Shown here in pieces: positions 2,740-64,000 of a stretch of DNA of 64,000 nucleotides (positions within the stretch are counted from its first letter, which is position 1; each line of letters opens with the position of its first letter). The notes below the pieces were generated by a model that was not told where the DNA came from, did not search any database, and saw nothing but the letters and a program-made list of their open reading frames with translations. This DNA comes from Minisyncoccia bacterium (GTDB lineage: Bacteria; Patescibacteriota; Minisyncoccia; Phycocordibacterales; GWA1-40-21): contig JBAQFI010000012.1 in NCBI GenBank assembly GCA_049287185.1, positions 166,179 to 230,178 of the forward strand, in the 5' to 3' direction. The position numbers were made by a program, and so were the translations under genes.

Positions 2740-4401
2740 CTATTCCCTATTTAAGGCACTAATTACGGCTTTGACTGATGCCAATTGAATACTTGTATCA
2801 ATCCCGGCTCCCCAACGGATTTTCCCGCTAGAAAACTTGAGTTTAATATAAGCGATCGCTTTAGCGTCAGATCCGAGACCAAGTGTATGTTCAGACTGAT
2901 CTAAAACACAAACATCGGTCACGTTTATGTCGTGAAGAGAGTTAATAAAGGCGTCAATCGGTCCATTACCTTTTCCCACCAAAACTGCTTTTGCGTTATC
3001 AATTTTAATAATTGAATTACACTCGCAGCTGTCAATATTATTTGTTGAATAAAAATATTCAATGGAATAGGGATTTGTTCGATCGATATATTCTCCCCAA
3101 AACATGGTTTTTATTTCCTCGGCTTTTACCTCTCGGCCGAGATTATCAACCAATTTACTGGTGATGTCTCCGAATTCTCTTTGCATATCTTTTGGCAAAT
3201 AAATTTTGTACTCATTTTCCAATATATATGCTTTACCACTTTTGCCAGATTGACTGGTGACTCTGATTACTTCTTTATAATCTCGGCCAATATCAATCGG
3301 ATCAATGGTGAGATACGGCACATCCCAAACCAGGAGTCCTGACTGGAGCAATCCTCCCCATCTAGCAATCAATCCTTTTCTTATCGCATCTTGATGTGAT
3401 CCAGAAAAGGCAGTGAGGACCAATTCCCCACTGTATGGTTGTCTTGACGGCACTGTCATCCCCGTGCATTCCTCGTACACTTTCCGGATTTGATTTATAT
3501 TAGAAAAATCTAACTTTGGATCAATTCCTTGAGTATAAAGATTCAAAGCCACAGTGATGATATCAAGGTTACCGGTTCGCTCTCCATTACCGAAGAGTGT
3601 ACCTTCAACTCGATCAGCACCAGCCAATAAACCAAGTTCTGTTGATGCTACTCCAGTTCCTCGATCATTGTGAGTATGAAGACTGACAATAATGGAATCA
3701 CGGCAAGACACATGGCGACAAAACCATTCAACTTGATCAGCGTACACATTTGACATGGCAACTTGAACAGTCTCAGGCAAATTAAAAATTATTTTATTTT
3801 CCTGAGTCGGTTTCCATTCCTTTGCTACGGCTTCACAAACATCCAAAGCAAATTCTACTTCGGTTGCCGAAAAGCTTTCTGGCGAATACTGAAGTCTTAC
3901 TTCTGCTTCACCAAGAAATGATGCGTACTGTTTTACCCATTTTGTCCCTTGCACCGCTAACTCAATAATTTCCGGTTTTTCCAAACCAAAAACAATTCGT
4001 CGTTGAGCGGGTGAAGTAGAATTATACATATGAATTATTACTTTTTTCACACCAATCAATAATTCACAGGTAATCTTAATCAAATCTTCACGCGCCGGCG
4101 TGAGAACTTGAATCGTCACGTCATTAGGAATCTTGTCTTCCTTTATTAGACGCTTAACAAATTCAGCTTCGATTAAAGATGCTGCTGGGAAGCCGACTTC
4201 AATTTCCTTAAAACCACAGGCAATGAGCGTATCGAAAAAAATCATTTTTTGTTCAACACTCATTGGAGTAGCTAAGGCTTGATTACCGTCGCGTAAATCA
4301 ACACTGCACCAGATTGGTGCCTGAGTTATTTTACGATTCGGCCACTCACGATTTTCCAATTTAATAACTGGAAAGGACACATACTTACCTTTTGGATTCA
4401 T
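2740..4401 (-). CDS. leuA: 2-isopropylmalate synthase, long LeuA form (IWCSVDLRDGNQA, HTHNDRG motifs, C-terminal regulatory domain)
   Basis: strong motif match to actinobacterial-type LeuA; terminator hairpin at 2698-2728. Confidence 0.85.
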   Translation of the reverse strand: MNPKGKYVSFPVIKLENREWPNRKITQAPIWCSVDLRDGNQALATPMSVEQKMIFFDTLIACGFKEIEVGFPAASLIEAEFVKRLIKEDKIPNDVTIQVLTPAREDLIKITCELLIGVKKVIIHMYNSTSPAQRRIVFGLEKPEIIELAVQGTKWVKQYASFLGEAEVRLQYSPESFSATEVEFALDVCEAVAKEWKPTQENKIIFNLPETVQVAMSNVYADQVEWFCRHVSCRDSIIVSLHTHNDRGTGVASTELGLLAGADRVEGTLFGNGERTGNLDIITVALNLYTQGIDPKLDFSNINQIRKVYEECTGMTVPSRQPYSGELVLTAFSGSHQDAIRKGLIARWGGLLQSGLLVWDVPYLTIDPIDIGRDYKEVIRVTSQSGKSGKAYILENEYKIYLPKDMQREFGDITSKLVDNLGREVKAEEIKTMFWGEYIDRTNPYSIEYFYSTNNIDSCECNSIIKIDNAKAVLVGKGNGPIDAFINSLHDINVTDVCVLDQSEHTLGLGSDAKAIAYIKLKFSSGKIRWGAGIDTSIQLASVKAVISALNRE

Positions 4402-6689: not shown

Positions 6690-7943
6690 TTATAGAAGTG
6701 ACTTCTTTCTTAACTGACGACGGTGGGCACCAATGGCAAAACGATGGGCCTCACCATTTATTTCTAATATTTGTTTAGAGTATTTTTTAGTAATGCTAGT
6801 TGAACCAATAATGGCTTTTGGCTGATGCTTTTCATTTTTAACCACGGAAACTACTGGCATAGTTAAATTTTTATCTGTTAAAATTTGTGTTGCTACTTTT
6901 ATCTGTCTTTTATCTCCATCAACTACAATTAAATCTGGTAAAGTCCATTCTGGGTGGTTCAGCCGACGAATTATAAGTTCTCTCAAGGCAGCCAGATCAT
7001 CGCGCTGACTATCCTTAATATTAAACAAACGATATTTCTGAGGTGTGAGTTCACCATTCTCGCTAACGACCATCACTCCTATTTCCGCAGCTCCAGCATG
7101 GTGTGCCACATCATAGGCTTCAATTCTAAATTTATTATTCGTATGATATTCGTTTGTCGATTCGTTGTATTCGTCCATTCGTATATTCGTTAAGCTGTCA
7201 TTTTTAATCAGTGCCACGTCCTGAATATGTTGTGGTGCAAAAAGAGTTCGTTTAACAACATTGGCTTCCTCAAATTTATGTTCTTTAGCCAAGGTTTTCA
7301 TTTCGCTATTTAACTCCTTTACCAAAGTTTTCTTTCTACCAGATAAAAAGTATTTGAGGTGGCGGATTATTTTATTGTAATCACGTTTCGAAATTAAACC
7401 GGAACAAGTACCAGGACAAAGACCAATCTGATAATTAAAACATGGTCTGTTTAGATTTAATGCACATTCACTGCGAAAAGGAAAAATTTTACGAATTATT
7501 CTTAGAGCTTCCTTAAGTGAATTACTTTGAGTAAAAGGTCCAAACTTTTCAGAAATCGGAAAATCAAAATCTTTCTCCAATTCCCTACCACGAATAGTTA
7601 GAACTCTGGGAAAATCTTCTTTGGTTATCACTACCCAATTAAAACTTTTATCATCTTTTTCTTTGGTGTTGTAATAAGGTGTGTGTTTTTTAATTAATGA
7701 GGCTTCAAGAATTAAGGCTTCTAAAACTGAATCTGTGACTTCAAAATCTATCCTGTCAGTCTTGGTTACCATATCTACTAAAAGTGGTCCGCGAGTAGCA
7801 ATCAAATCATTAGCAAAATAACTACGAACACGGTCGCGTAGTGACGTCGCCTTTCCGATATACAAAATCTCCGAGCCTCTCTTAAAGAAGTAAACTCCAG
7901 GCAAATCAGGTAAATTCAGTTTTTTTATATATTGACTTTTCAT
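6690..7943 (-). CDS. uvrC: excinuclease ABC subunit C, short form (GIY-YIG plus RNase H-like endonuclease domain, no C-terminal HhH); carries an in-frame repeat insertion
   Basis: GIY-YIG N-terminus (GVYFF...LYIGKA), UvrC endonuclease domain (IEAYDVAH, VVDGDKRQ). Confidence 0.85.
   Translation of the reverse strand: MKSQYIKKLNLPDLPGVYFFKRGSEILYIGKATSLRDRVRSYFANDLIATRGPLLVDMVTKTDRIDFEVTDSVLEALILEASLIKKHTPYYNTKEKDDKSFNWVVITKEDFPRVLTIRGRELEKDFDFPISEKFGPFTQSNSLKEALRIIRKIFPFRSECALNLNRPCFNYQIGLCPGTCSGLISKRDYNKIIRHLKYFLSGRKKTLVKELNSEMKTLAKEHKFEEANVVKRTLFAPQHIQDVALIKNDSLTNIRMDEYNESTNEYHTNNKFRIEAYDVAHHAGAAEIGVMVVSENGELTPQKYRLFNIKDSQRDDLAALRELIIRRLNHPEWTLPDLIVVDGDKRQIKVATQILTDKNLTMPVVSVVKNEKHQPKAIIGSTSITKKYSKQILEINGEAHRFAIGAHRRQLRKKSLL
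7136..7196. repeat. CGAAT-rich repeat (family A) half-copy inserted in frame inside uvrC (encodes ...IRMDEYNESTNEYHTNN...)
   Basis: about 90 percent identity to intergenic copies at 47157-47213 and rc of 11219-11290; lies at an extra about 17 aa segment relative to E. coli UvrC between the conserved helix and the RxEAxDxxH motif. Confidence 0.65.
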
Positions 7944-8001
7944 CTTGATTATGACATTATCTTAGCAGAAGTTCTATAAAATTCAACATCTGGAGGATAA
8001 A

Positions 8002-8556
8002 ATGAAATTATGTATAGGAAATTCACGTTTGGTTTTGGTTTTTCCGCTACTTGGCTTCGTTATAAAGTTTCCGAAGATTAATCTCAAACCAATATATGAT
8101 TTGGTAAGAGACGTACTGCTTAACAGATGGAAAAACCAGGAAATGCTTTGGTCACTGCCAATCGACATAGATTTTAGCCCGCGACATAAGTTGTATGGCG
8201 GAATCTACGAAAATTGGTTTGAATGGAAAGCTTGGCGTAAGACTCATTACAAACTCTTGTGTCCAACCTGGTTTTCTTTTTTTGGATTATTTAATATCCA
8301 AAAATATGGTGCGGCACTCAAGTCAGACCAAGTTGATATGAAAAAGGCTATTAATAAAGTGACAAATGGTGATTCATGTCACAGCCATAGTCATGGATTT
8401 GATGGTGCAGAGAATTACTGTGAAAGAAGTGGGCACATCCAAATGATTGATTATGGCACTCGTCGTCTCTGGCCGGTAATAAAAAAATACAATCAAGAAA
8501 TTGTCCGACTGACAGTTCAAGATTGTCAAAAAGAACAAGCCACAACTGATGGCTGA
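8002..8556 (+). CDS. hypothetical protein (His/Cys-rich segment CHSHSHG)
   Basis: GGAGGA RBS upstream; terminator at about 8560-8590. Confidence 0.45.
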   Translation: MKLCIGNSRLVLVFPLLGFVIKFPKINLKPIYDLVRDVLLNRWKNQEMLWSLPIDIDFSPRHKLYGGIYENWFEWKAWRKTHYKLLCPTWFSFFGLFNIQKYGAALKSDQVDMKKAINKVTNGDSCHSHSHGFDGAENYCERSGHIQMIDYGTRRLWPVIKKYNQEIVRLTVQDCQKEQATTDG

Positions 8557-8590: not shown

Positions 8591-11215
8591 CTACTTATTT
8601 TTAAGATGCTTCTTCAAATACTTTCCGGTATAAGATTTTTCATTTCTGGCTATATCTTCCGGCGTACCCTTCGCAACTATTTCTCCACCTTTATCACCCC
8701 CTTCTGGACCAATATCAATTACATAGTCGGCAGATTTAATTAAATCCATATTGTGTTCAATCACCACCACAGTATTACCTTCATCTACCAGCCTTTGTAA
8801 AATTTCAATTAATTTCTTAACATCCTCATAATGAAGTCCGATGGTCGGTTCATCTAAAACATACAAAGTTTTTTGCATAAATGGTCGGTATAATTCTGAA
8901 GAAATTTTGACACGCTGAGCCTCCCCACCTGACAAGGTGGTAGCAGATTGTCCAAGCTCCAAATAGCTGAGTCCGACGTCATTTAAGCTCTTCAAACGGT
9001 CAGAAATAGCTGGAATATCCTTAAAGAACTCCAAGGCCTCTTCTACGGTCATTTTGAGCACGTCATATATGCTTTTACCCTTATATTTAACCTCTAAAGT
9101 CTCCTTGGTAAAGCGCTTACCATTACAAACATCGCATGGCACATAAACGGTTGGTAAGAAGTGCATTTCTACTTCGATGGTGCCGTTTCCCTCACAAGCC
9201 TCACAACGTCCACCTTTAACGTTAAAAGAAAAACGATTGCTCTTCCAACCGCGAGCTTGCGCTTCAACAGTGTTGGCAAACATATCGCGAATAAAGGTAA
9301 ATGCCCCAGTATAGGTGGATGGGTTAGAACGTGGAGTTCGTCCAATCGGTGACTGATCAATCATGATGCCCCGACCAAGATATTCTGTGCCAGTACAAGA
9401 AGTACAATTAAATATTTCGTTAGAGCGATAGCGACGATCTAATTTGGCTTGCAAGTTTTTAAACAGAATTTCATAAATCAAAGATGATTTTCCAGAACCT
9501 GACACACCGGTAATACAGACTAGTTTACCGAGTGGAATATCCACATTCATATTTTTAATATTGTAAATGTGTCCACCACGAATTTTTATTTCACCTTTAT
9601 TTTCATCACGTCTTTTTTTAGGAGTTTTAATCACTAAATCCTCACGCAAATAATCTAGAGTAATTGATCCTGACTCATTTTTCTTATCAGTTAAAAGTTT
9701 GTCTAGATAGCCAGAAACTACTACGTGTCCACCGTGGACTCCAGCACCTGGTCCAATATCTACCAAGTAATCGGCAGAGTAAATTGTATCTTCATCGTGT
9801 TCCACCACAATAATAGTATTTCCTAAGTCTCTAAGGTGAAGCAGAGTTTTAATCAGACGATCATTATCACGACTATGTAGTCCAATCGTTGGTTCGTCCA
9901 AAACATACAAGGCTCCAACCAATCCAGATCCCAACTGACTAGCCAAACGAATACGTTGGGCTTCCCCACCAGAAAGAGTATAAGCGCGACGACTAAGTTG
10001 TAAATATTCAATACCGACGTTTAACATAAATTGTAAACGATCATCAATCTCTTTTAAAACTACTCGAGAAATTTCTTTTTCACGTTCATCAAGCACAAGT
10101 TCATCCATAAACTTTTTAGCATCAGTAATATTTTTATCAACAAATTGGGAAATGTTAATTCCACCCATCTTAATGTGATAGGCTTCTTCACGCAGGCGTC
10201 CTCCTTTACACTCAGCACACGGTTCATCACCAAAAATATGTTTTGTTCCAAGTCCATTACAATGAGGACAGGCACCATATGGAGAGTTAAAAGAAAACAA
10301 ACGTGGCTCGATTTCTGGATAGGAATAACCGTCATAAGGACACATAAACTTTACCGACATAATTTTTTCTCCAGCCGGAGTTTCAATTTTGAGCATACCT
10401 TGTGACTCATCAATGGCTTTTTCAATCGCTTCACTCAAACGCTCTCTGGTGGCACCAAACTCTTTTTTATTCCCGCCGTTAGGTCGGGCAGGCTTGAATT
10501 CACTGACAAAAAACTCATCAACTAAAATATCAATGTCATGTTTTTTATTTTTATTTAAAATAATTTGTTCACGAAGCTTCATCATTTCGCCGTCAATCTT
10601 TACCCACTCATAACCCTTACCAAGTAGATCATAAAGTAATTGGTAGTATTCACCTTTGCGTCCAACTACCACCGGTGAGAAAATTTTTACCCGAGCCTCA
10701 TTATAAGGTACACCTAAAACCACTTTGTTTTGTTTGGCATAGTCGGCTGTAGTTACAGTTTTTATAACAGTTTCTAGAATTTCTTCATTAGAAAGTTTTT
10801 TAATTTCACGACCACATTCTAAACAGTGTGGATGACCAATGCGGGCATAGAGAATACGAAGATAATCATATATTTCGGTAATAGTAGCCACAGTGGAACG
10901 AGGATTGTTGGAACGAGATTTTTGGTCAATGGAAATAGCCGGACTTAAACCAGAAATCTCATCTACATCTGGTTTTTGCATCTGGCGGAGGAACTGACGA
11001 GCATAAGAAGAAAGAGATTCAATGTAGCGACGTTGGCCTTCAGCAAAAATAGTATCGAATGCCAAAGACGACTTACCTGATCCGGAAAGTCCTGTAAAAG
11101 CAATCATTTTACCTCGAGGCATTTCCAGATCAATATTTTTAAGGTTATTAGTTCTCGCCCCCTTAATAGTAATCTTGTCAGACTCGGTAATTATTTTTGG
11201 TTTTTTATTTTCCAT
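8591..11215 (-). CDS. uvrA: excinuclease ABC subunit A (tandem ABC ATPase with zinc fingers)
   Basis: two Walker [24 protein letters not shown] signatures LSGGE, Cys clusters. Confidence 0.95.
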
Positions 11216-11544: not shown

Positions 11545-11592
11545 GCTACAGTTTTCAACTGACTTATATAGTCAGTTGAAAACTGTGGCGAA
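11545..11592. promoter_or_regulatory. near-perfect 21 bp-arm palindrome (cgctacagttttcaactgact tatata agtcagttgaaaactgtggcg) in leader of hypothetical gene
   Basis: seen directly; one mismatch in arms. Confidence 0.4.
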
Positions 11593-11635
11593 AACAAATC
11601 GTTTAGTCCAACAGTAGAGACGTGTTTCTAAGGAA

Positions 11636-12373
11636 ATGAGTCTCACAAAAAAAAGGAATAGGTTAGTTATGAAAAAAACTAATGGGTTCTGGAAAGCCGC
11701 CGGTCAGATTCATGAATTTGCAATGAAAGCCAGAGACAGGGGTATAACTGAGGCAGACATAACATTGTTTACTCAAAGTCCTGAAAGAATGGATGACTTA
11801 AAAAAGCTGGCTCGTGGAGGGATAGTGTCGTATCCAACCGATAAAATTTTATCAATGATAGAATGTGATATAAAAATTCCAGCGGTTTGGGAACGTGTTT
11901 CTCTTGATGATTATCTCCGAATTAATATTGGTCAGATGGCAAAAAAACAATGGAGGGAGGGAGATATAAAAATTGTGTCTATCGACGGAGAAATTAGAGA
12001 ATTCTTTGGCGGACAGATGATCGACGGTGATGTTGGTCAATATTTGTCAGCTTACGAAATCGCCGAGAACAAAACTAACGACATAAATTATGATGGTCGA
12101 GTACGATTTGAACTCGGTGACAACCATGAAGTAAAGTTTACAACAATTTTTCACTTATTGCGCCAGCAACCCAAAGGTGAATCTGAAGGTTCACTACGTA
12201 TCGATAAATGTAATAAATTTTATGTTATCGATAATGATGGAGAGGTTCGCTGTGTCTGCATACAATGGTGGGAGGCAATTGGTGGATGGGGTATTAGTAT
12301 CTGCAAAAGTAATCTTGGTCGTCATATTGGTGGCCAAAATATCTTTTTCGCAAGACGTGGTATTTATGCTTAA
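11636..12373 (+). CDS. hypothetical protein (alternative start 11669 MKKTNGFW with AGGAA RBS)
   Basis: long ORF, no recognised family. Confidence 0.45.
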   Translation: MSLTKKRNRLVMKKTNGFWKAAGQIHEFAMKARDRGITEADITLFTQSPERMDDLKKLARGGIVSYPTDKILSMIECDIKIPAVWERVSLDDYLRINIGQMAKKQWREGDIKIVSIDGEIREFFGGQMIDGDVGQYLSAYEIAENKTNDINYDGRVRFELGDNHEVKFTTIFHLLRQQPKGESEGSLRIDKCNKFYVIDNDGEVRCVCIQWWEAIGGWGISICKSNLGRHIGGQNIFFARRGIYA

Positions 12374-22643: not shown

Positions 22644-22715
22644 GGCCCTATCGTCTAACGGTTAGGACAGAGCCTTCTCAAGGCTTAAATCGGGGTTCGA
22701 TTCCCCGTAGGGTCA
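22644..22715 (+). tRNA. tRNA-Glu (anticodon CUC)
   Basis: manual cloverleaf: acceptor GGCCCTA/TAGGGTC, D-loop AACGGTTA, anticodon loop TTCTCAA, T-loop TTCGATT. Confidence 0.8.
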
Positions 22716-22863
22716 CAAAAATTTACAGGGTATAATTTTTATGATTTCAAAATGCAAAAGTCTTTGCATTTTGAAAGAATCGAAAGACGGAGGCCGACGG
22801 GCCGAGTCGGGGTCGCAAGATTTTTCAGCAGAAAAATACTAGTGACCGAAAGCGTACTCGCGT

Positions 22864-22879
22864 TTCCCCATAGGGTCAC
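22864..22879 (+). repeat. direct repeat of tRNA-Glu 3' end (ttccccatagggtcac vs ttccccgtagggtcac at 22701-22716): att-like scar
   Basis: 16/17 identity 148 bp downstream of the tRNA. Confidence 0.5.
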
Positions 22880-22959
22880 TTTCATGAGCTAACGCAAGAA
22901 GTAGTTATTTGTATTATTGATGTATACACATAACATAATTATTACGTTATAATAAATAT

Positions 22960-57551: not shown

Positions 57552-58401
57552 TCAAAACATAAAAACTGCCTTTATGGGTAGTTCTGAATTTTCCGTTATT
57601 GTTTTAGACAATCTTAAAAAGGCTGGACTAATTCCCGATTTGATTGTGTCAGCTCCTGACAAACCACGTGGTCGCAAAATGGTCATCACTCCAAATGAAG
57701 TGAAAACCTGGGCCATTAAAAATAATATCCCAGTTGTGACTCCTGACAAATTAAAAAATCCTGATTTTCTGGAAGTAATTAAAAATCACGATTTACACAT
57801 TGTTGCTTCCTACGGCAAAATAATTCCGGCTGGAGTTTTATCCAGTGCCAAATATGGCAGTGTAAATATTCATCCTTCCCTACTACCAAAATATCGTGGC
57901 CCATCACCACTCCAAACAGCTATTTTAAATAATGACAAAAATACTGGCATTTCCATTATGCTTTTAGATGCCGAAGTGGATCACGGACCAATTTTAGCTC
58001 AAGAAAATATTTCTCCTGAAAACTGGCCTGTTTCTTTTAATGAACTGGAAAAAATTACGGCTGAGGCTGGAACAAAATTGCTTATCAAAGTTTTACCTGA
58101 CTGGATAAATAATTCGATAAAAGCCCGCGAGCAAGATCACAGCCAAGCAACTTTTACCAAAAAAGTTGAGAAAACTCACGGTCTGATTAGTCTTACCGAT
58201 AAACCTATGACTAATTTACTGAAAACTAAGGCTTATAGCGAATGGCCCAATACTTATTTTATTGTTAAACACAAAGATCGAGATATCCGAGTCATTGTCA
58301 AAGATGCTAAACTTGAGGCTGGTCAGTTTGTCCCAACGAGAGTTATTCCAGAAGGAAAAAAAGAAATGGACTATAAATCATTTCTTCAGGGACTTAAATA
58401 G
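57538..58401 (+). CDS. fmt: methionyl-tRNA formyltransferase (start at MIINN, 14 nt overlap with def)
   Basis: formyltransferase N-domain SLLPKYRG motif and C-domain. Confidence 0.9.
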   Translation: MIINNQNIKTAFMGSSEFSVIVLDNLKKAGLIPDLIVSAPDKPRGRKMVITPNEVKTWAIKNNIPVVTPDKLKNPDFLEVIKNHDLHIVASYGKIIPAGVLSSAKYGSVNIHPSLLPKYRGPSPLQTAILNNDKNTGISIMLLDAEVDHGPILAQENISPENWPVSFNELEKITAEAGTKLLIKVLPDWINNSIKAREQDHSQATFTKKVEKTHGLISLTDKPMTNLLKTKAYSEWPNTYFIVKHKDRDIRVIVKDAKLEAGQFVPTRVIPEGKKEMDYKSFLQGLK

Positions 58402-58405
58402 CACA

Positions 58406-58441
58406 AAAAAACTACTAACCATAATGGTTAGTAGTTTTTTT
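58406..58441. terminator. bidirectional terminator aaaaactactaacc-ataa-tggttagtagttttt
   Basis: seen directly. Confidence 0.75.
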
Positions 58442-58444
58442 GTG

Positions 58445-59029
58445 CTATTTAAGTGTGACACTCTTTATAACCACGGGAGTGATCAACCCTCCTCTATTAT
58501 TTTTCGGGGCCTTGGCCATAGCAGACAAAATATCTAGACCATTAGTTACCCTAGCGAATACTGCGTGTTCACCCTCTAGCCACGGTGCAGCATAGCCAGT
58601 AACAATAAAGAAACCACCACTCTTCTCACCAGTAACTGTTCCCAGTGAACCAAAGGTCATATGTTCATTATTTACTTCATTCCATGACACCTCCATTGTT
58701 GAGGTCGGAGCAGAAAACTGAATGAAATCATTTACCATATCGGACATTCTAACCCCATTATATAAACCAGCTTTAGTTAATTTAATAAATGAATTAACTG
58801 ACAGAGGTGCCGCTTCCTTCAAAAAAGAGATTTCTAAAATACCAAAATTGGTTTCAATGATTGCCCCTTTGGCTGAAGAGTTTAAATTACCAGCATTATC
58901 AATATTGTTATTCGCAAAATAAAGGGAAAGAGATACTGTTATCATCAATAGGAAAATAACAATACTGGAAATTAAAATTGAACGATGTTTTACAAGGTTT
59001 TGTATCATACTACTCTTCCTTACTACCAC
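58445..59029 (-). CDS. ppiB: membrane-anchored cyclophilin-type peptidyl-prolyl isomerase
   Basis: cyclophilin core motifs (FIKL...G.Y.G, FFI). Confidence 0.85.
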   Translation of the reverse strand: MVVRKSSMIQNLVKHRSILISSIVIFLLMITVSLSLYFANNNIDNAGNLNSSAKGAIIETNFGILEISFLKEAAPLSVNSFIKLTKAGLYNGVRMSDMVNDFIQFSAPTSTMEVSWNEVNNEHMTFGSLGTVTGEKSGGFFIVTGYAAPWLEGEHAVFARVTNGLDILSAMAKAPKNNRGGLITPVVIKSVTLK

Positions 59030-59399
59030 CAGATAGACCTCTGAGCATACTCTTCAATTTAGCACCACCGCGACGAATGAGACTGGTTCTTCGTTCTTTA
59101 TTGTGTTCAACAACACGGACTATTTCATCTTTAACCTCATCGATTGCCTGATAGAGGTCTTCTTTTTGGGATTTTACGGTGTAACTGCGACCTCGGATTA
59201 AAGCCTTAACTTCAGCTAGAAATATGGCTCCTTCTTTGTGGTGATTGGTAGTTTTTTCAATATCAATATTAAATTCAGCCGCCTCAACAACATCTGGGTT
59301 ATGACCTAAAAACTTTTCAACATGGGAGATGCGCTTATTAATATAATCATTTATGGCTGGAGTAATTTCTAGATTCTTTGAATGAATAGTTATTTTCAT
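59010..59399 (-). CDS. hpf: ribosome hibernation promoting factor / RaiA, short form
   Basis: MKI.I...NLE.TPAI..Y pattern. Confidence 0.85.
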   Translation of the reverse strand: MKITIHSKNLEITPAINDYINKRISHVEKFLGHNPDVVEAAEFNIDIEKTTNHHKEGAIFLAEVKALIRGRSYTVKSQKEDLYQAIDEVKDEIVRVVEHNKERRTSLIRRGGAKLKSMLRGLSGGSKEE

Positions 59400-59425
59400 A
59401 TTTTTGATAATTTATTAATAATTTT

Positions 59426-59647
59426 TTAACGGCCAGCGCTCAAGATTTTACTTGGCGAATGATGGCCACTAATAATCCTTATATCTCCATTATACTCCGG
59501 AAACTTTTCTTTGACCAACTCTAAAATACGTTTATTGGCTAAATTTCTTTCAGCCGGCTCTTTAACCCAGATTCGTAAAAAATTTGGTTCAATTTCTTCA
59601 ATCTTCTCCTTCTTAGCATTCGTGACTGCTCTAATCTTTATGTACAT
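59426..59647 (-). CDS. DUF167/YggU-family protein
   Basis: family-typical 70-aa fold signature (V.A.....G.I.G). Confidence 0.6.
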   Translation of the reverse strand: MYIKIRAVTNAKKEKIEEIEPNFLRIWVKEPAERNLANKRILELVKEKFPEYNGDIRIISGHHSPSKILSAGR

Positions 59648-59764
59648 AGTACAATTATAGCGCTAGACATAGTTAAAAACAAAAGCCTTAGGTATTGCCT
59701 TTATCCTTATTTTTGCTAAGATGATAGACGTATTCTAGCCACAAAATAGGAATACAAAATATAT

Positions 59765-59836
59765 TCCGTGGTAGCTCAGTGGTAGAGCGATCGCCTGTTA
59801 AGCGATTGGTCGTAGGTTCGATCCCTACCCACGGAG
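59765..59836 (+). tRNA. tRNA-Asn (anticodon GUU)
   Basis: manual cloverleaf: acceptor TCCGTGG/CCACGGA, anticodon loop CTGTTAA, T-loop TTCGATC. Confidence 0.9.
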
Positions 59837-61378
59837 CAATGTAGGATGAGAGAGCACGAAAGTGCTCTTTTGTCTTTTATTAGCAACGTTTTTCTCTGGT
59901 TCGAAAGTATCATTAAGTACTGGTACCCAATTAGTCAAAAACTGGAAGGCTAAAGTGTAATCTGCACTTATTTCATCTGTGTTTAATGACATGTTCGAAA
60001 ATATTTTGCTGAGAAGTAATCTCTTGTCTTCTATACTGCATCTTGGACTCTTATATATCTCTTCTGCTTTTGACGCTAGTTCATGAATTGCAAAACCAAT
60101 TTCATAATACTTTGTATTTCCTTCATTTAATTTCTTGAGTAATTCAATACCATCTTCCTTATCCTTTGTGTATTCTGCAAATTTTTTATTATAGAATTCC
60201 GGTGTAATCTTTGAATCAATCTTATCTTCATAAATAGCTTCGAGACGCTTTTGTGCTAATTCAACTTGTTGATTGGCTTCCTTTTGCATTGTGACCTGAT
60301 ATTTTATTTCCCCATCATGATTACTTTTAAGTGCTTCTTCAAGAATTTTTAAAACATTTCTTGATTTTGGAGCGACTTTATCAAACAGAGGAAATATCAT
60401 TTCTTCAACTTTCTCCTGACGAAACCACTTCTTTTGACTGCATTTTCGGTAATGATTACAATGTCCATACCAATGTTCTCTTTGAATTTCCCAAGTAACT
60501 GTTCCTTTGCATTCACCACATTCTATCTTTGCTTTAAATACAGGTAGATGTTTTCGATATTGAGGAACCTTAAATTTACGCATCAATTTTTCTTTAACTT
60601 GATCGAAAAGACTTTTGGCTATTATAGGTTCATGCTTGGCTGGATAGAGATTTCCATTCCAACTCATCATGCCGTAATAGAAAGGGTCTGAAAGAAGATC
60701 ATACATTCTTGATTTCCCCACTTTTTTTCCTTCTCTATTTCTTAAACCTTTCTTATACATAAGGTCTGAAAGAGCAGGAGTTGAATAGTTACCAGTTGAA
60801 TATAACCGAAACATTTCAATTATTATTGGTTTTCTCTCCTCATCTATAACATGTATCTTATGCCCTTTATCTCCAATGGTTTTATAACCTAATGGTGGCT
60901 TGGTTGGTAACCAACCCTGAGCTATCTTCTCTTTTTGCCCCTTTTTTACTTCTTCAGATAGATTAGCTATATACTTCTTTGCAAGGACAATTTCGATGTC
61001 CCATCTAAACTTCTCGTCTGATTTTGAGTATTTATGTATTACAAGATTTTGTTTTACAAAATGAATTTGTCTTTCGCAATTTTCTTCAACCCAGTTATTT
61101 ACGTCTAAAGCTTCTTTCAAATTCCTAGTTAGTCTATCAACTTTCTCGCATAATAATACTGATATACCATTTCTTAACATATAGCTCATCATTTCTCCGA
61201 ATATCTTTCTTTGTTTAGCACCACTTGCTGATTCTGCCACTGAAAAGGTCTTATCAACTTCAAATCCCCTCCTTTCTGCGTAATCAATCAAAAGTTTTTC
61301 CTGGGCTGGTAATGAATAACCTGTTTCTTCTTGTTCTTTAGATGATACCCTACAATATGCTACTGATTTAATTTTCAT
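59825..61378 (-). CDS. large serine recombinase/integrase (resolvase catalytic domain YCRVSSKEQ, recombinase domain, Zn ribbon), 3' end abuts tRNA-Asn
   Basis: catalytic Ser motif and domain order. Confidence 0.85.
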   Translation of the reverse strand: MKIKSVAYCRVSSKEQEETGYSLPAQEKLLIDYAERRGFEVDKTFSVAESASGAKQRKIFGEMMSYMLRNGISVLLCEKVDRLTRNLKEALDVNNWVEENCERQIHFVKQNLVIHKYSKSDEKFRWDIEIVLAKKYIANLSEEVKKGQKEKIAQGWLPTKPPLGYKTIGDKGHKIHVIDEERKPIIIEMFRLYSTGNYSTPALSDLMYKKGLRNREGKKVGKSRMYDLLSDPFYYGMMSWNGNLYPAKHEPIIAKSLFDQVKEKLMRKFKVPQYRKHLPVFKAKIECGECKGTVTWEIQREHWYGHCNHYRKCSQKKWFRQEKVEEMIFPLFDKVAPKSRNVLKILEEALKSNHDGEIKYQVTMQKEANQQVELAQKRLEAIYEDKIDSKITPEFYNKKFAEYTKDKEDGIELLKKLNEGNTKYYEIGFAIHELASKAEEIYKSPRCSIEDKRLLLSKIFSNMSLNTDEISADYTLAFQFLTNWVPVLNDTFEPEKNVANKRQKSTFVLSHPTLLRG

Positions 61379-61745
61379 AGTTTTTGTTATTATGATTATT
61401 TTCTAATAAGATTTTATAATTTACTTCTGCGAGTTTATCAAAGTAATCAACAAGATCTGAAAGTATCATGTTAGCATCATCGAAACTCATATTTTTGCAA
61501 TAATCGTCTTTGATAGCTTTTTGAAATCTTTCAATAATCTTTCTGCCAAATTTTCCATAAATAATGACAAGGATTAATTCAATGTCTAACAATCCACAAA
61601 TAGTAACTTCTTCGAAACAAAAGATTTCTAGTATTCCTTCATCTAATTTCTTCTTTTGTCTTAAATTAATACATTTTTCTAGTTTTTTCATAATTCTAGT
61701 TTTATATCTCTTCATTGACCACTTTATACTCACACTGCGCTTCAT
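61368..61745 (-). CDS. hypothetical protein in island
   Basis: ORF only. Confidence 0.35.
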   Translation of the reverse strand: MKRSVSIKWSMKRYKTRIMKKLEKCINLRQKKKLDEGILEIFCFEEVTICGLLDIELILVIIYGKFGRKIIERFQKAIKDDYCKNMSFDDANMILSDLVDYFDKLAEVNYKILLENNHNNKNYEN

Positions 61746-61825
61746 ACGACTCTGCTAGGCGAATGAAAGTTCAAAATGTGAGTAAATGATCATTTAGCGA
61801 TATATTTAATTAATAAAGGTCTCCT

Positions 61826-61853
61826 ATAACTAATTTGTTAACAAATTAGTTAT
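61826..61853. promoter_or_regulatory. 28 bp perfect palindrome ataactaatttgtt|aacaaattagttat, about 80 bp upstream of hypothetical gene 61745
   Basis: seen directly. Confidence 0.35.
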
Positions 61854-62026
61854 TTTTGACATGAACTGTAACGTTCTAAGTATTCTGTTACTGCTTCACC
61901 TAATACAGTTGAGAGGGTTTCATATCTTCGCTTGGCGTATCCTAAAGCGTCATCTTTTAAACCTCTATCTAAACGGACTAGTACAGTAGCACGTGTTTTT
62001 CGTCTTTTTCTTGTTTGTGTTTCCAT
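61850..62026 (-). CDS. candidate 58-aa ribbon-helix-helix DNA-binding protein (TRATVLVRLD strand, two helices)
   Basis: manual ORF; RHH-like pattern; 28 bp perfect palindrome overlapping its 3' end. Confidence 0.35.
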   Translation of the reverse strand: METQTRKRRKTRATVLVRLDRGLKDDALGYAKRRYETLSTVLGEAVTEYLERYSSCQK

Positions 62027-62799
62027 ATATTTTAGATTAATAATAAAACTGCCTACTTCTACTTAAATAGATTTAAGATTAAAACTTCATAATATTTGAA
62101 TACGAAAAAAGCCCTATTTACCTCATAGTAGGAATCTTCACAGACCTACCATGAGCTAAACAGGGTTCTTTATGTGAAGATTTTGTTATATACACAAGAC
62201 TTTGAAATAGACGTAATTCAATAGAATTCGACCTTAGAAAGCTTTAAAACTTAAATGAGCAACCGAAATATACATATTCATATTAATAAAGTAATTCTAA
62301 CATAGTCCCAAAAAGTCATCTTAATATCTGAAAGATATTAAATAAAAAATGAAAATAACCTTATAATATAGGGGTTTTCTTATAAAATGTCTGATGTAAC
62401 ACTAATTTAGTTTTGATAGTGGGGGGGGGCGTAGTTAAGTTTAACTTCCCTAGATATCCAAGAGACCCTAGGGTAACCAAACTATTTATGCTTCGGAAAA
62501 TTATTCTCAATTTCAAAATCGAGCGGTCAAAAAAATTTCTAAAATTTTCACAGAAAATAGGGTTGGCAAGGTTAAATAGAAAGGGTAGAATATAAGGGTC
62601 GGTAAAACTAAATATGTGACCTAACCTCCACAGAGTAATTTATGGAGCACGGTCTTAAATCGTAAGCCACAAACAACCTATCATTAGGGCGTGGCTTACG
62701 TTATACCGGGAAACTGGTATATGGCCGCAAGGCCTCCTAGTGGTAGGCTTTTTGTTGCTTATTTTTTAGGATTACTAATTAAAAACAAAAGAAAATTAA

Positions 62800-63867
62800 A
62801 TGAAAAATATCGGTAGTCTAATTTTGTTTTTAGTATTTTTATTCTTACCTATTACTTTTACATATGCCTACGGTGGATCATTAGGTACTTTTGGTAACCC
62901 ATTGCAGGTTGAGGTAGTACAAACACCATCACAAATACTAGACCAACAAAGAAGAGATATGGAATTGAGGTCTCAACAACAAAGCCAACAAAATTCTCTA
63001 AATTCTGCATTACACCTGCAACAAGAACTGAAATTTTTGGAATTAAAACAACAAGTAAATGATCGCTTTAAGCCATTCCCTGGTCACCTACCTACACCTA
63101 ACTGTCAAAATGGCTATGTTTTAATGAATGGAAGCTGTATTACTTATAATCAATCATGTAATCTTCAATATCCCAATACTGTTTTTGTAAATTATAATGG
63201 CAATGGTGAAAGAGTCTGTAATTGTGCGAGTGGTTATCTCTGGAATAAACAAAAAACAGGCTGTATTCTAGATTACAATTTAATCTGTTCCGATAAATTT
63301 GGAGCAGGATTTACCTGGGATGGCACAATTAATAGTGCTGGTGGCCCAAATTGTTCATCAGCGGTAGAAAATAATAAGATCTGCGCTAAAGATTATGGAG
63401 AAAGAAGTATTTGGAATGGCAAAACAAATGAAAAAGGTGGATTAATTTGTGATTGTATGACTGGCTATCAATGGAATTCTAATCAAACATCTTGTATTAC
63501 TATTTCCAAACCTAAAACAATTTCTACCACCACAGTGATAAATGGTGGTAGGAGTTTAGGGATCTGCACAAACAATGCGACTAACTATCCGACTTGTGAT
63601 AGTAATGTAAAAATATCCTGTGATAAAATAGTTTTTGGAAAAATGACAAGTTTTGGTGTTATAACTAAGGATGAATGTAGTTTGGCCTGGAAGAAAGCAG
63701 TTGAAGCAAAGCAACAGGAAACAAAAATAGAAGAAAATATTCAAAAAGCAACAACTACTGATGCGCAGATTATAAGTAATTCAAGTAGTACTGTTTTAGT
63801 AACTAGTAGTTTAGTTCAAAAAAACGGTGGCATTTGGAAAGTCATTACAGGCTGGTTTGGTTTTTAA
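62800..63867 (+). CDS. secreted Cys-rich repeat protein (4 copies of C.C..GY.WN....C, Gln-rich linker, C-terminal hydrophobic tail)
   Basis: signal peptide and repeat pattern. Confidence 0.5.
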   Translation: MKNIGSLILFLVFLFLPITFTYAYGGSLGTFGNPLQVEVVQTPSQILDQQRRDMELRSQQQSQQNSLNSALHLQQELKFLELKQQVNDRFKPFPGHLPTPNCQNGYVLMNGSCITYNQSCNLQYPNTVFVNYNGNGERVCNCASGYLWNKQKTGCILDYNLICSDKFGAGFTWDGTINSAGGPNCSSAVENNKICAKDYGERSIWNGKTNEKGGLICDCMTGYQWNSNQTSCITISKPKTISTTTVINGGRSLGICTNNATNYPTCDSNVKISCDKIVFGKMTSFGVITKDECSLAWKKAVEAKQQETKIEENIQKATTTDAQIISNSSSTVLVTSSLVQKNGGIWKVITGWFGF

Positions 63868-63887
63868 TACAAATCATATGAGTGATA

Positions 63888-64000
63888 ATAATATTGTAAA
63901 AATAAGAGTTCCACATACCCACTTTTGGGTATTAGGAGTTAAAAAAGACAATAATTTATGGGAACTATATCTAATTAATCCAAAAACTAATTACAAAGAA
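63888..64000 (+). CDS. 5' part of hypothetical gene running off window
   Basis: open frame from ATG to window end. Confidence 0.25.

Follow-up and report, generated by a model that had tools for sequence, protein, structure and literature searches.

Large serine integrases of phages and conjugative transposons (the TP901-1, A118, phiC31, Bxb1 and TnpX/TndX type) consist of a catalytic domain with a serine nucleophile, a recombinase domain, a Zn-ribbon and a long C-terminal region, and their genes are the outermost of the element, adjoining the att site, with a small gene coupled upstream. According to a survey of these enzymes, targeting of tRNA genes by serine integrases 'had not been known'; it was detected in only 14 of the 297 serine-integrase elements, and experimental proof was called for (PMC7192596). 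P4-like and Islander-type islands and prophages employ tyrosine integrases; in these, the integrase gene adjoins an intact tRNA gene, tRNA 3' fragments are displaced, islands accrete in tandem at one tRNA, and the defence and surface cargo varies.

Among structured RNAs, the large ornate RNAs GOLLD and ROOL are described as often located near tRNAs and in prophages (PMC5737381). The report that describes LOOT RNA (Rfam RF03000; Weinberg et al. 2017, PMC5737381) makes no mention in its main text of a link between LOOT and serine-integrase islands or phages. GOLLD and ROOL are several-fold larger than LOOT (~140 nt) and unrelated to it in sequence and structure.

The region from 59.8 to 64.0 kb of the window (the whole 64,000-nucleotide stretch of DNA that was analysed) is very probably the integrase-bearing end of a mobile island beside tRNA-Asn in an ultra-small CPR bacterium (Minisyncoccia). 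The most informative component of this island is a LOOT RNA that the initial annotation overlooked, and serine-integrase islands at tRNA genes with LOOT form a large, essentially undescribed group.

The integrase gene and its tRNA-Asn

The following features were identified along the island:
59765..59837, + strand: tRNA-Asn (GTT), predicted by ARAGORN; Rfam tRNA score 73.1 bits
59825..61378, - strand: integrase of the large serine recombinase class, 517 aa, catalytic motif YCRVSSKEQ; Pfam
59843..59881, + strand: extended hairpin AGAGCAC-GAAA-GTGCTCT followed by a U-tract; RNAfold -22 kcal/mol
61368..61745, - strand: small ORF, 125 aa, sharing 11 nt with the integrase start
61826..61853, no strand assigned: perfect palindrome of 28 bp that separates the 58-aa ORF from the operon of the small ORF and the integrase
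61850..62026, - strand: orphan ORF, 58 aa, possible ribbon-helix-helix regulator
62421..62429, + strand: G9 homopolymer within a 591-nt non-coding stretch (62027-62617)
62563..62591, + strand: promoter-like site TTGGCA-17-TAGAAT, a consensus match only
62618..62754, + strand: LOOT RNA (Rfam RF03000); the Rfam model spans 62618-62735
62800..63867, + strand: secreted Cys-rich repeat protein, 355 aa, the first gene after LOOT
63827..64000, + strand: first part of an 87-aa ORF, which continues beyond the window end and is whole on the Logan unitig L002

The tRNA-Asn gene is the attachment-site side (attL) of the island. To its left lie the host genes def, fmt, PPIase, HPF and DUF167. The GC content is 0.31-0.33 in the island region compared to approximately 0.36 elsewhere. 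The same window sequence was found again, identical, in an independent read set.

The initial annotation reported a 517-aa large serine recombinase that ends within the 3' end of tRNA-Asn, and both parts of this assignment are borne out. The protein matches the Pfam families Resolvase (PF00239, 5.6e-19, residues 6-155) and Recombinase (PF07508, 1.9e-12), with a weak match to Zn_ribbon_recom (PF13408, 17.3 bits, under the cut-off of 25.3). It is full length and retains every residue that is invariant in the alignment of the family (A1), including R10 and S12 of the catalytic domain and C287, C290, C307 and C313 of the Zn-ribbon. The domain organization and the position of the gene at the element end are shared with the TP901-1-type integrases, and the TP901-1 catalytic domain is the only detectable match in the PDB (3e-7). 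The window enzyme differs from these in its identity to any GenBank phage integrase, which does not exceed 28%, and in its tRNA-gene target. It falls in a clade with upwards of 1,700 members (a search at E<=1e-60 gave 1,748 relatives), and every named one comes from CPR.

The tRNA-Asn 3' end contains the last 13 nt of the integrase ORF, such that the 3' strand of the tRNA acceptor encodes the stop codon and the last four codons. Unlike in TP901-1-type systems, the integrase ORFs of this clade enter the tRNA gene and, in the tRNA-Gln loci, pass through it. Directly 3' of tRNA-Asn, antisense within approximately the last 17 codons of the integrase gene, lies the hairpin at 59843..59881, which resembles an intrinsic terminator and is shared by the junctions of two related loci (L008 and L061); a consensus terminator scan across this region did not include it among its calls. 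In the arrangement that we propose, the element sequence would extend up to the tRNA terminus, so that the last integrase codons and the stop codon would be read from the tRNA acceptor strand, and the tRNA terminator would be embedded in the C-terminal coding region of the integrase.

Junctions with tRNA genes in related loci

The association with tRNA genes is a property of the family as a whole. Among the 36 related loci, 27 have an intact tRNA gene (Asn, Gln, Ile, Trp or Ser) whose 3' end is touched or overlapped by the 3' end of the integrase gene; in 24 of these, the tRNA lies on the opposite strand, and in three, it is an intron-split tRNA-Asn. In a further 8 loci, the integrase gene abuts a short or decayed tRNA 3' fragment. 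At one tRNA-Asn gene, three such islands are arrayed in tandem, and a 9-10-nt copy of the tRNA terminus is repeated at a junction; the locus L039 contains two LOOT-integrase units in tandem. In relatives, the length of the displaced tRNA fragments ranges from 8 to 43 nt (for example, 43 nt in L004 and 10 nt in L016), and hence the crossover point is not fixed, which counts against the proposal. The attP x attB crossover, of 2 bp in enzymes of this type, would lie near the tRNA 3' terminus.

Thus, the window island and its relatives share with the P4-like and Islander-type islands the integrase gene next to an intact tRNA and, in the relatives, displaced fragments, tandem accretion and variable defence and surface cargo. 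They differ in that the enzyme is a serine rather than a tyrosine recombinase, that the junction repeats in relatives often comprise only 8-10 nt of the tRNA terminus, and that, in the window island, no repeat of the tRNA 3' terminus (attR) of at least 8 nt is present in 59846-64540. The far end (attR) would lie outside the sequence examined, and we infer, rather than observe, the current mobility of this island. In the Logan graph, a repeat spans window positions 59781-59838 and is no more than suggestive of a displaced tRNA copy. In five loci, 5' tRNA fragments lie on the upstream side of an intact tRNA gene, and our proposal does not explain them.

The insertion site is polymorphic between strains: the sister strain L047 is 96.4% identical to the window up to tRNA position 26 and then diverges. 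The flanks are unrelated between loci, the cargo is non-syntenic, and no clean empty site was found among the relatives. The reading of these genes as an element, which conserved synteny in relatives would have contradicted, thus stands, given the tRNA arrangement in 27 of the 36 loci, the non-syntenic cargo and the divergence of L047 inside the tRNA gene. We regard it as very probable that the region is an element integrated at tRNA-Asn by the large serine recombinase. In full, the explanation that we favour, and consider probable, is that it represents the integrase-proximal arm of an integrative element, either a genomic island or a prophage-like one, and possibly a virus, a satellite or a plasmid-like island, that was inserted at the tRNA-Asn 3' end by the serine integrase and carries a LOOT-led cassette.

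An old island fixed in the lineage and no longer mobile, with the recombinase either retained for another role or decaying, would account for the many relatives that are clearly decayed or displaced and adjoin degenerate tRNA fragments (L004, L009, L012, L014 and L064), for the scars at tRNA-Glu in the window and at tRNA-Asn in L047, and for the lack, in the window subtype, of the Prim-Pol/F3 replicase module of its relatives. We regard such an immobile remnant as distinctly unlikely, considering that the integrase is full length with all invariant residues, that the tRNA it abuts is intact and high-scoring rather than a decayed fragment, and that the sequence is identical in the independent read set.

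Control region and cargo

Under the preferred reading, an element integrated at tRNA-Asn, the DNA upstream of the integrase gene would hold element-specific control parts, namely, the coupled small ORF, an orphan ORF that resembles a regulator, and a palindrome specific to this element. As in the TP901-1-type systems, a small gene is coupled to the integrase gene. The 125-aa ORF, initially described as a hypothetical protein, is present, with conservation limited to its C-terminal ~58 residues (about 61371-61544), a part that shows 46% identity to a 65-aa ORF in L008; no Pfam or PHROG match was detected. Related islands hold an HTH_17 excisionase-like gene in its place (1.4e-12, PHROG excisionase), and the 125-aa ORF is therefore a candidate directionality or regulatory factor.

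The 58-aa ORF has no Pfam match, and a search among 5.8 billion proteins returned the query alone. A weak full-length match to 2KEL_A in the PDB (E=0.049), which we take to be the ribbon-helix-helix protein SvtR of SIRV1, is compatible with a possible ribbon-helix-helix regulator. Members of this superfamily (CopG/Arc/MetJ) have an N-terminal beta-strand and then two helices; the single-sequence AlphaFold model consists of one long helix and no strand. The palindrome that overlaps its stop codon was found exactly as initially described (61826-61853). By our estimate, approximately 0.001 such palindromes are expected per window; the predicted hairpin energies are -12.7 and -14.5 kcal/mol for the - and + strands, respectively. 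The half-site is not enriched elsewhere, and no counterpart is present in related islands, making the palindrome, a candidate operator or RNA hairpin, unique to the window element.

The non-coding stretch that follows (62027-62617) shows similarity to no related locus. The initial annotation took the AT-rich DNA here for a spacer; the stretch is indeed non-coding, but the presumed spacer holds the LOOT RNA at 62618-62735. The G9 tract reported at 62422-62430 as possibly phase-variable actually occupies 62421-62429 and is the sole run of at least seven G or C in the 64 kb; it lies in non-coding DNA, about 140 nt before the promoter-like site of LOOT.

The secreted 355-aa protein encoded after LOOT has a hydrophobic N-terminus and 16 cysteines; the adhesin role initially suggested for it is a tentative one. 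The four repeats originally assigned to it are reduced to two strict C.C..GY.WN motifs (residues 140 and 217) and a loose one (102). It has no significant Pfam match, 407 representative relatives match it, mostly via the ~55-aa Cys repeat, and a homologue in L039 is likewise the first gene after LOOT. The element continues past the window, as anticipated, with the 87-aa ORF, which has no Pfam match, crossing the window end. Related islands carry, as cargo, restriction-modification systems of types I, II and III, a helicase-nuclease, Prim-Pol replicases and secreted proteins. Within the 4.7 kb of the window element that was examined, no phage hallmark genes (terminase, capsid, portal) or conjugation genes were identified, and the close islands contain no virion or packaging genes within 10 kb.

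The LOOT RNA

The window RNA matches the LOOT model along its full length (model positions 1-121), well above the gathering score (73.2 bits versus 46.4), and keeps the conserved CCUAA, GCAUGG and GAAA elements. Compared to the 121-nt Rfam model, the loci analysed here add a conserved 3' tail of ~20 nt that ends in a U-tract; in the window, the conserved tail occupies 62736-62748 and is followed by U5 at 62749-62753. This tail and the apical loop of the long hairpin form a helix. In an alignment of 16 sequences (A3), this long-range helix is 96.6% paired, and 11 of its 15 pairs are compensatory; across the LOOT helices, 93% of the cells are paired and double changes occur in 33 of the 41 pairs, a level reached by none of 500 shuffles. 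Covariation thus supports a predicted loop-tail helix that is missing from the Rfam model, and the minimum-free-energy fold of the window LOOT includes it.

LOOT is linked to the integrases. Of the 13 islands with close integrases that could be evaluated, 11 contain LOOT; none of 13 tRNA-Gln loci does. The LOOT loci are the window, L008, L010, L013, L014, L015, L019, L023, L039 (twice), L061, L063 and L064; the integrases involved are located at tRNA-Asn and tRNA-Ile as well as in tandem arrays. Independently, IMG/VR contigs yielded six LOOTs. The annotated ones (L053-L055, L058 and L060) carry packaging or virion-type genes, with ParB-methylase, TerS-like, TerL-like and HNH genes among the annotations, and in four LOOT-bearing contigs, the serine integrase is only 26-28% identical to that of the window.

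These observations bear on the alternative that only a 2.8-kb integrase module (59838 to ~62600) is foreign, with its far end in 62027-62617 and with LOOT and the Cys-rich gene belonging to the host. The unique 591-nt stretch could hide such a junction, the distance between LOOT and the integrase varies from 1.2 to 5.5 kb, as if LOOT marked the host side, and the Cys-repeat family has hundreds of members. However, LOOT accompanies integrases at two different tRNA genes, occurs twice in the L039 array and is found beside terminase genes in phage contigs; the genes after LOOT are non-homologous between loci and often encode defence systems; and no fragment of the tRNA terminus is present in 62027-62617. 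We consider this alternative very improbable.

Unlike GOLLD and ROOL, LOOT is placed as the leader of an ORF. In all 15 loci, an ORF on the same strand begins 15-70 nt after LOOT, and in 12 of these, its product contains a signal-peptide or transmembrane-like segment. In the window, the promoter-like site ends 26 nt upstream of LOOT. Terminator/antiterminator riboswitches and the put RNA of phage HK022 are known leaders that control read-through. LOOT resembles them in the location of a structured RNA just past a promoter, in a helix that abuts a U-tract before the regulated ORF, and in the competition between local and long-range pairings, with the local hairpin and the loop-tail helix of LOOT vying for the same CCC bases.

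In the model that we propose, a promoter diverging from the integration module would drive LOOT, which would serve as the leader of a 'moron'-type cassette. Against this arrangement, LOOT is located on the integrase strand in L061 and L062. The last helix of LOOT, between the loop and the 3' tail, abuts the U-tract and lies 45 nt before the Cys-rich gene; when this helix forms, transcription would stop, yielding the ~140-nt RNA, and when it is prevented from forming, RNA polymerase would read into the envelope or secreted-protein and defence cargo. Unlike in the riboswitches and put RNA, ligand, protein partner and termination are all hypothetical for LOOT, and attenuation is proposed from its structure and position; furthermore, the terminator 'loop' of ~65 nt with two hairpins is atypical of leader terminators.

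Alternatively, LOOT could be a free-standing, trans-acting small RNA, for example, one involved in immunity or host targeting, with its closeness to the ORF due to genome compactness. In Rfam, LOOT is typed as a trans sRNA gene, it has a promoter-like site of its own and a helix with a U-tract at the 3' end, and the genes downstream are unrelated to each other. The invariable same-strand ORF, the attenuator-like competition for the CCC bases and the failure to find target complementarity (by eye only) count against such a role, which we treat as a genuine contender, if the somewhat less plausible one.

A more general scenario, that we put forward as a speculation with rather low odds of being correct in its entirety, is that LOOT is a cis regulatory RNA of CPR temperate elements, a ligand- or protein-sensing attenuator in which the loop-tail helix and the U-tract would terminate transcription and thereby gate the envelope, secreted and defence 'moron' genes beside the integrase. 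LOOT would travel with a CPR-wide serine-integrase clade in which true targeting of tRNA genes arose and in which one stretch of DNA serves at once as integrase C-terminus, tRNA terminator and att site. In a bolder version, LOOT may be part of the control of integration or excision itself.

The tRNA-Asn island and its integrase clade

By its Pfam Resolvase and Recombinase domains together with a weak zinc-ribbon match, the 517-aa ORF next to tRNA-Asn is a large serine recombinase (LSR), as the initial annotation had proposed, and the 3' end of the tRNA gene indeed contains the last 13 nt of this integrase ORF.

Features of the island region
59765-59837, + strand: tRNA-Asn(GTT), found by both ARAGORN and Rfam
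59825-61378, - strand: LSR (517-aa ORF)
61826-61853: perfect 28-bp palindrome, between the 125-aa and 58-aa ORFs
62421-62429: G9 tract in a 591-nt non-coding stretch; the only G or C run of at least 7 in the window
62618-62735, + strand: full-length LOOT RNA (RF03000), Rfam score 73.2 bits (gathering score 46.4)

Upstream of the integrase, on the - strand, are a 125-aa ORF, which shares 11 nt with the start of the integrase gene, and a 58-aa ORF. The host DNA to the left of the tRNA carries ordinary genes (def, fmt, PPIase, HPF, DUF167). The GC content is 0.31-0.33 in the island region versus about 0.36 in the remainder of the window. The attR repeat of the tRNA-Asn 3' end anticipated in the initial annotation was not found: no repeat of at least 8 nt of the tRNA terminus is present up to 64540 (540 nt past the window). 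Because the far end lies beyond the sequence reached, the case for an integrated element rests on comparison with related loci.

Species-representative genomes (4 loci), JGI metagenomes (39 loci) and exact-protein look-ups supplied relatives of the integrase; in 36 loci, the sequence reaches past the integrase. In two-thirds of these (24 of 36), the 3' end of an intact tRNA gene on the opposite strand (Asn, Gln, Ile, Trp or Ser, plus Ala at the second integrase of locus L010) abuts or overlaps the 3' end of the integrase gene. In three more, an intron at 35/36 interrupts the tRNA-Asn, as has been described for Patescibacteria (PMC13011429); eight retain short or decayed tRNA 3' fragments, and one has nothing. 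Syntenic conservation of these genes in relatives, which the initial annotation would have counted against an integrated element, was not observed: no homology was detected between the loci, on either side, past the integrase and one or two small genes. Restriction-modification systems of types I, II and III, a helicase-nuclease, Schlafen, Prim-Pol replicases and secreted proteins are among the island cargo.

Several loci are informative on integration itself. In L004, the copies of a 43-nt flanking repeat are 10.7 kb apart; the P'-arm motif of this locus is absent from the other loci, and the search for long tRNA 3' repeats within 10 kb yielded none in any locus. Contig Ga0208040_1000370 (L034 and L016) carries three tandem serine-integrase islands at a single tRNA-Asn. 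Ten nucleotides of the tRNA terminus, repeated at L016 3164-3173, mark the junction with the newest island, and behind the two older integrases stand an 8-nt fragment and a decayed tRNA remnant. A contig of a sister strain from a different sample (L047, Logan ERR14794644) matches window positions 57988-59790 at 96.4% identity and diverges inside the tRNA, which indicates that the tRNA-Asn site is polymorphic between close strains. Among the loci retrieved via HPF homologues in search of an empty site, L047 is informative yet ends inside a tRNA, and L048 and L049 have no tRNA at this position. Apart from the second junction, the features by which integrative elements are usually recognized are present, so that the island is very probably an integrative element of the tRNA-targeting serine-integrase kind, with its far end unseen.

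Gene content and arrangement vary among the related islands. L010 (5938-7926) contains two converging serine-integrase islands on a divergent tRNA-Asn/tRNA-Ala pair, the 3' end of each integrase overlapping its own tRNA. In L063 (1404-3689) and L064 (6995-9199), a 734-761-aa Prim-Pol/PriCT_1 replicase and a DUF5659 protein are encoded upstream of the integrase (70-73% identical); in the group with 55% integrase identity (L010, L013, L023 and L039), an unannotated protein of about 470 aa (family F3) occupies the replicase position, and the window and L008 have neither. Pfam and PHROG searches with F3, another family kept among the islands (F10) and divergent island genes of 229-288 aa produced no match.

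The integrase clade is large, with at least 1,748 relatives at E<=1e-60 among the best 8,000 candidates scored; among the 120 matches listed, most without a taxon name, every named taxon belongs to the CPR. A database protein identical to the integrase of the window is assigned to a Minisyncoccia MAG. The closest phage integrase in GenBank is 28% identical, and the TP901-1 catalytic domain is the only detectable match in the PDB. Serine integrases are prized genome-engineering tools, and their use of tRNA genes is regarded as unreported or unproven: according to a large survey of integrative elements, they were not previously known to target tRNA genes, and tRNA targets were recorded in 14 of 297 cases, for which experimental proof was asked (PMC7192596). 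Here, the association with tRNA genes spans a whole clade of more than 1,700 proteins, on which our literature search found no paper, and the overlap of integrase and tRNA yields defined candidate attB/attP pairs. The mobile elements and phages of the CPR are poorly known, and a main vehicle of CPR restriction-modification and surface-protein genes is apparently found in these islands. At some tRNA-Gln loci (L003 9911-11602, also L005 and L006), the integrase ORF runs stop-free antisense through the whole tRNA, such that about 25 added residues are tRNA-encoded.

The tRNA junction and the site of crossover

In the tRNA-Asn group, the motif aATCCTAyc is kept just before the tRNA terminus, and in the window, L008 and L061 it comes after the hairpin AGAGCAC-GAAA-GTGCTCT. 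Read on the tRNA strand, this hairpin is accompanied by a U-tract and has a folding energy of -22 kcal/mol, so that the last ~17 integrase codons also serve the tRNA as a terminator-like element; a consensus terminator scan of the junction region did not list the hairpin.

The sequence ATCCTAC and the T-stem sequence GTAGGGAT are inverted complements of each other and form an imperfect inverted repeat whose center lies on the acceptor 3' strand. Together with the displaced tRNA fragments of 8-10 nt in L025, L034 and L016, this repeat suggests that crossover takes place close to the 3' terminus of the tRNA. Such a placement is not secure, because other loci contain tRNA-like fragments of about 30-43 nt, in five loci (including L047) the intact tRNA is preceded by 5' tRNA fragments, and the breaks between unitigs are ambiguous. 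Specifically, the Logan unitigs of SRR28062869 break on either side of 59781-59838 (58 nt, tRNA-Asn positions 17-74), so that this segment is a repeat in the assembly graph of that sample. An attR copy forming a 58-nt attL/attR repeat would fit these breaks, and a tRNA shared with another taxon would account for them equally well.

L047 begins this region with a degenerate 5' fragment of tRNA-Asn (positions 1-26), which foreign sequence of about 145 nt separates from tRNA positions 27-38; after another ~90 nt comes an intact tRNA-Asn, the T-arm of which is different. L039, L013, L010 and L031 have comparable 5' fragments, at 54-300 nt ahead of the intact tRNA. Simple 3'-end integration does not account for this arrangement.

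A LOOT RNA in the context of membrane and secreted proteins

Within the AT-rich spacer of the initial annotation, a stretch of 591 nt is non-coding, and the G9 homopolymer exists, one base away from where it had been placed, but the supposed spacer harbors a full-length LOOT RNA. The island thus carries a member of an orphan Rfam family of structured RNAs, so far known only from metagenomes, in a genetic context that is now defined and makes LOOT function directly testable; the main texts consulted on LOOT are silent on this context.

The LOOT of the window starts 26 nt after a promoter-like site and ends 64 nt before the ORF for the Cys-rich protein. LOOT is found in 11 of the 13 evaluable islands with an integrase at least 46% identical to that of the window, the LOOT islands being L008, L010, L013, L014, L015, L019, L023, L039 (twice), L061, L063 and L064, at a distance of 1.2-5.5 kb from the integrase start; the two mostly lie on opposite strands, with L061/L062 as the same-strand exception. 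None of the 13 tRNA-Gln loci has LOOT. At several tRNA-Gln loci (L003 11737-11858, L024 2540-2657, L026 11725-11836), a SAM riboswitch is the host-side neighbor of the tRNA, and in L010 (1451-1557) one lies inside the island, between LOOT and the replication/integration module.

A pattern search for LOOT in IMG/VR viral contigs, in which the integrase was not a criterion, identified six true LOOTs. Five annotated contigs (L053-L055, L058 and L060) have ParB-methylase, TerS-like and TerL-like families in common, with an additional HNH gene in L058; four encode an LSR 26-28% identical to that of the window, the start of which is about 160 nt from LOOT in two of them. In all 15 loci compared, an ORF on the same strand starts 15-70 nt past LOOT, and the first such ORF has a signal-peptide- or transmembrane-like segment in 12 of the 15; in L039, it encodes a homolog of the Cys-rich protein of the window. 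In L008 (6193-6420), L014 (~7800-8040) and L019 (7650-7838, - strand), this ORF represents a single family of 62-80-aa proteins with one transmembrane segment and the motif RP[SA]QIR..C...C[LR][RH]K.GL.

In an alignment of 16 LOOT sequences, a 3' tail outside the Rfam model is conserved and forms pairs with the long hairpin's apical loop. This long-range helix consists of 15 pairs, with 96.6% of the alignment cells paired and compensatory changes in 11 pairs, compared to 78% paired for a competing local hairpin, and a U-tract directly follows the tail. The small hairpin past LOOT was rejected as an ordinary terminator because, unlike the loop-tail helix, it is not kept in all sequence types. 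In our reading, the CCUAA...(C/U)AUGG internal loop, taken with the invariant GAAA tetraloop, is reminiscent of an 11-nt receptor/tetraloop pair.

Given the conserved loop-tail helix, the U-tract and the close downstream ORF, we favor LOOT as the putative leader of a moron-type cassette, in which the helix and the U-tract would constitute a conditional terminator; a free-standing small RNA is a serious alternative. As a cassette leader, LOOT would be an integrase-proximal element, with an extra terminator-like helix, preceding genes for membrane or secreted proteins in temperate elements.

Other parts of the island and a possible scar at tRNA-Glu

The 28-bp palindrome is perfect, as originally described, unique to this element and absent from relatives; an operator and an RNA hairpin are both possible roles. 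The uniqueness, the symmetric center and the absence from relatives led us to reject an att site or a repeated operator. Comparison of the 591-nt spacer and the 61746-61849 intergenic region with related loci revealed no similarity and no shared element.

The 58-aa ORF is an orphan, with no homologs for alignment and no Pfam match. Its weak, full-length match to PDB 2KEL_A (E=0.049), the ribbon-helix-helix regulator SvtR, fits a ribbon-helix-helix protein; a single-sequence AlphaFold run gave one long helix and was uninformative. Conservation of the 125-aa ORF is confined to the last ~58 residues, and its position is that of an HTH_17 excisionase-like gene in relatives. The 355-aa Cys-rich ORF has a signal-peptide-like N-terminus, in agreement with the secreted protein proposed initially, and 16 cysteines; the strict C.C..GY.WN motif occurs twice only, rather than four times. 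The family, with no significant Pfam match, comprises 407 representatives recognized via a ~55-aa repeat.

In L011 (~3640-4010), L015 (~9405-9525) and L061 (~11550-12300), the integrase abuts a tRNA-Asn gene that is broken after ...GCTTA, in the anticodon loop, and was missed by ARAGORN; the break in L011 is a group I intron according to Rfam. Elsewhere in the window, the 3' end of tRNA-Glu (22644-22716) recurs as a displaced copy, TTCCCCATAGGGTCAC (about 22865-22880), some 150 nt downstream of the gene. Between gene and copy, positions 22823-22846 are identical (24/24) to the spacer that splits the old tRNA-Asn of the sister strain L047, and the GC minimum of the window (0.276) is at 23-24 kb, just past this region. 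The 22644-22880 segment resembles the scar that an element of this kind would leave, here at a second tRNA.
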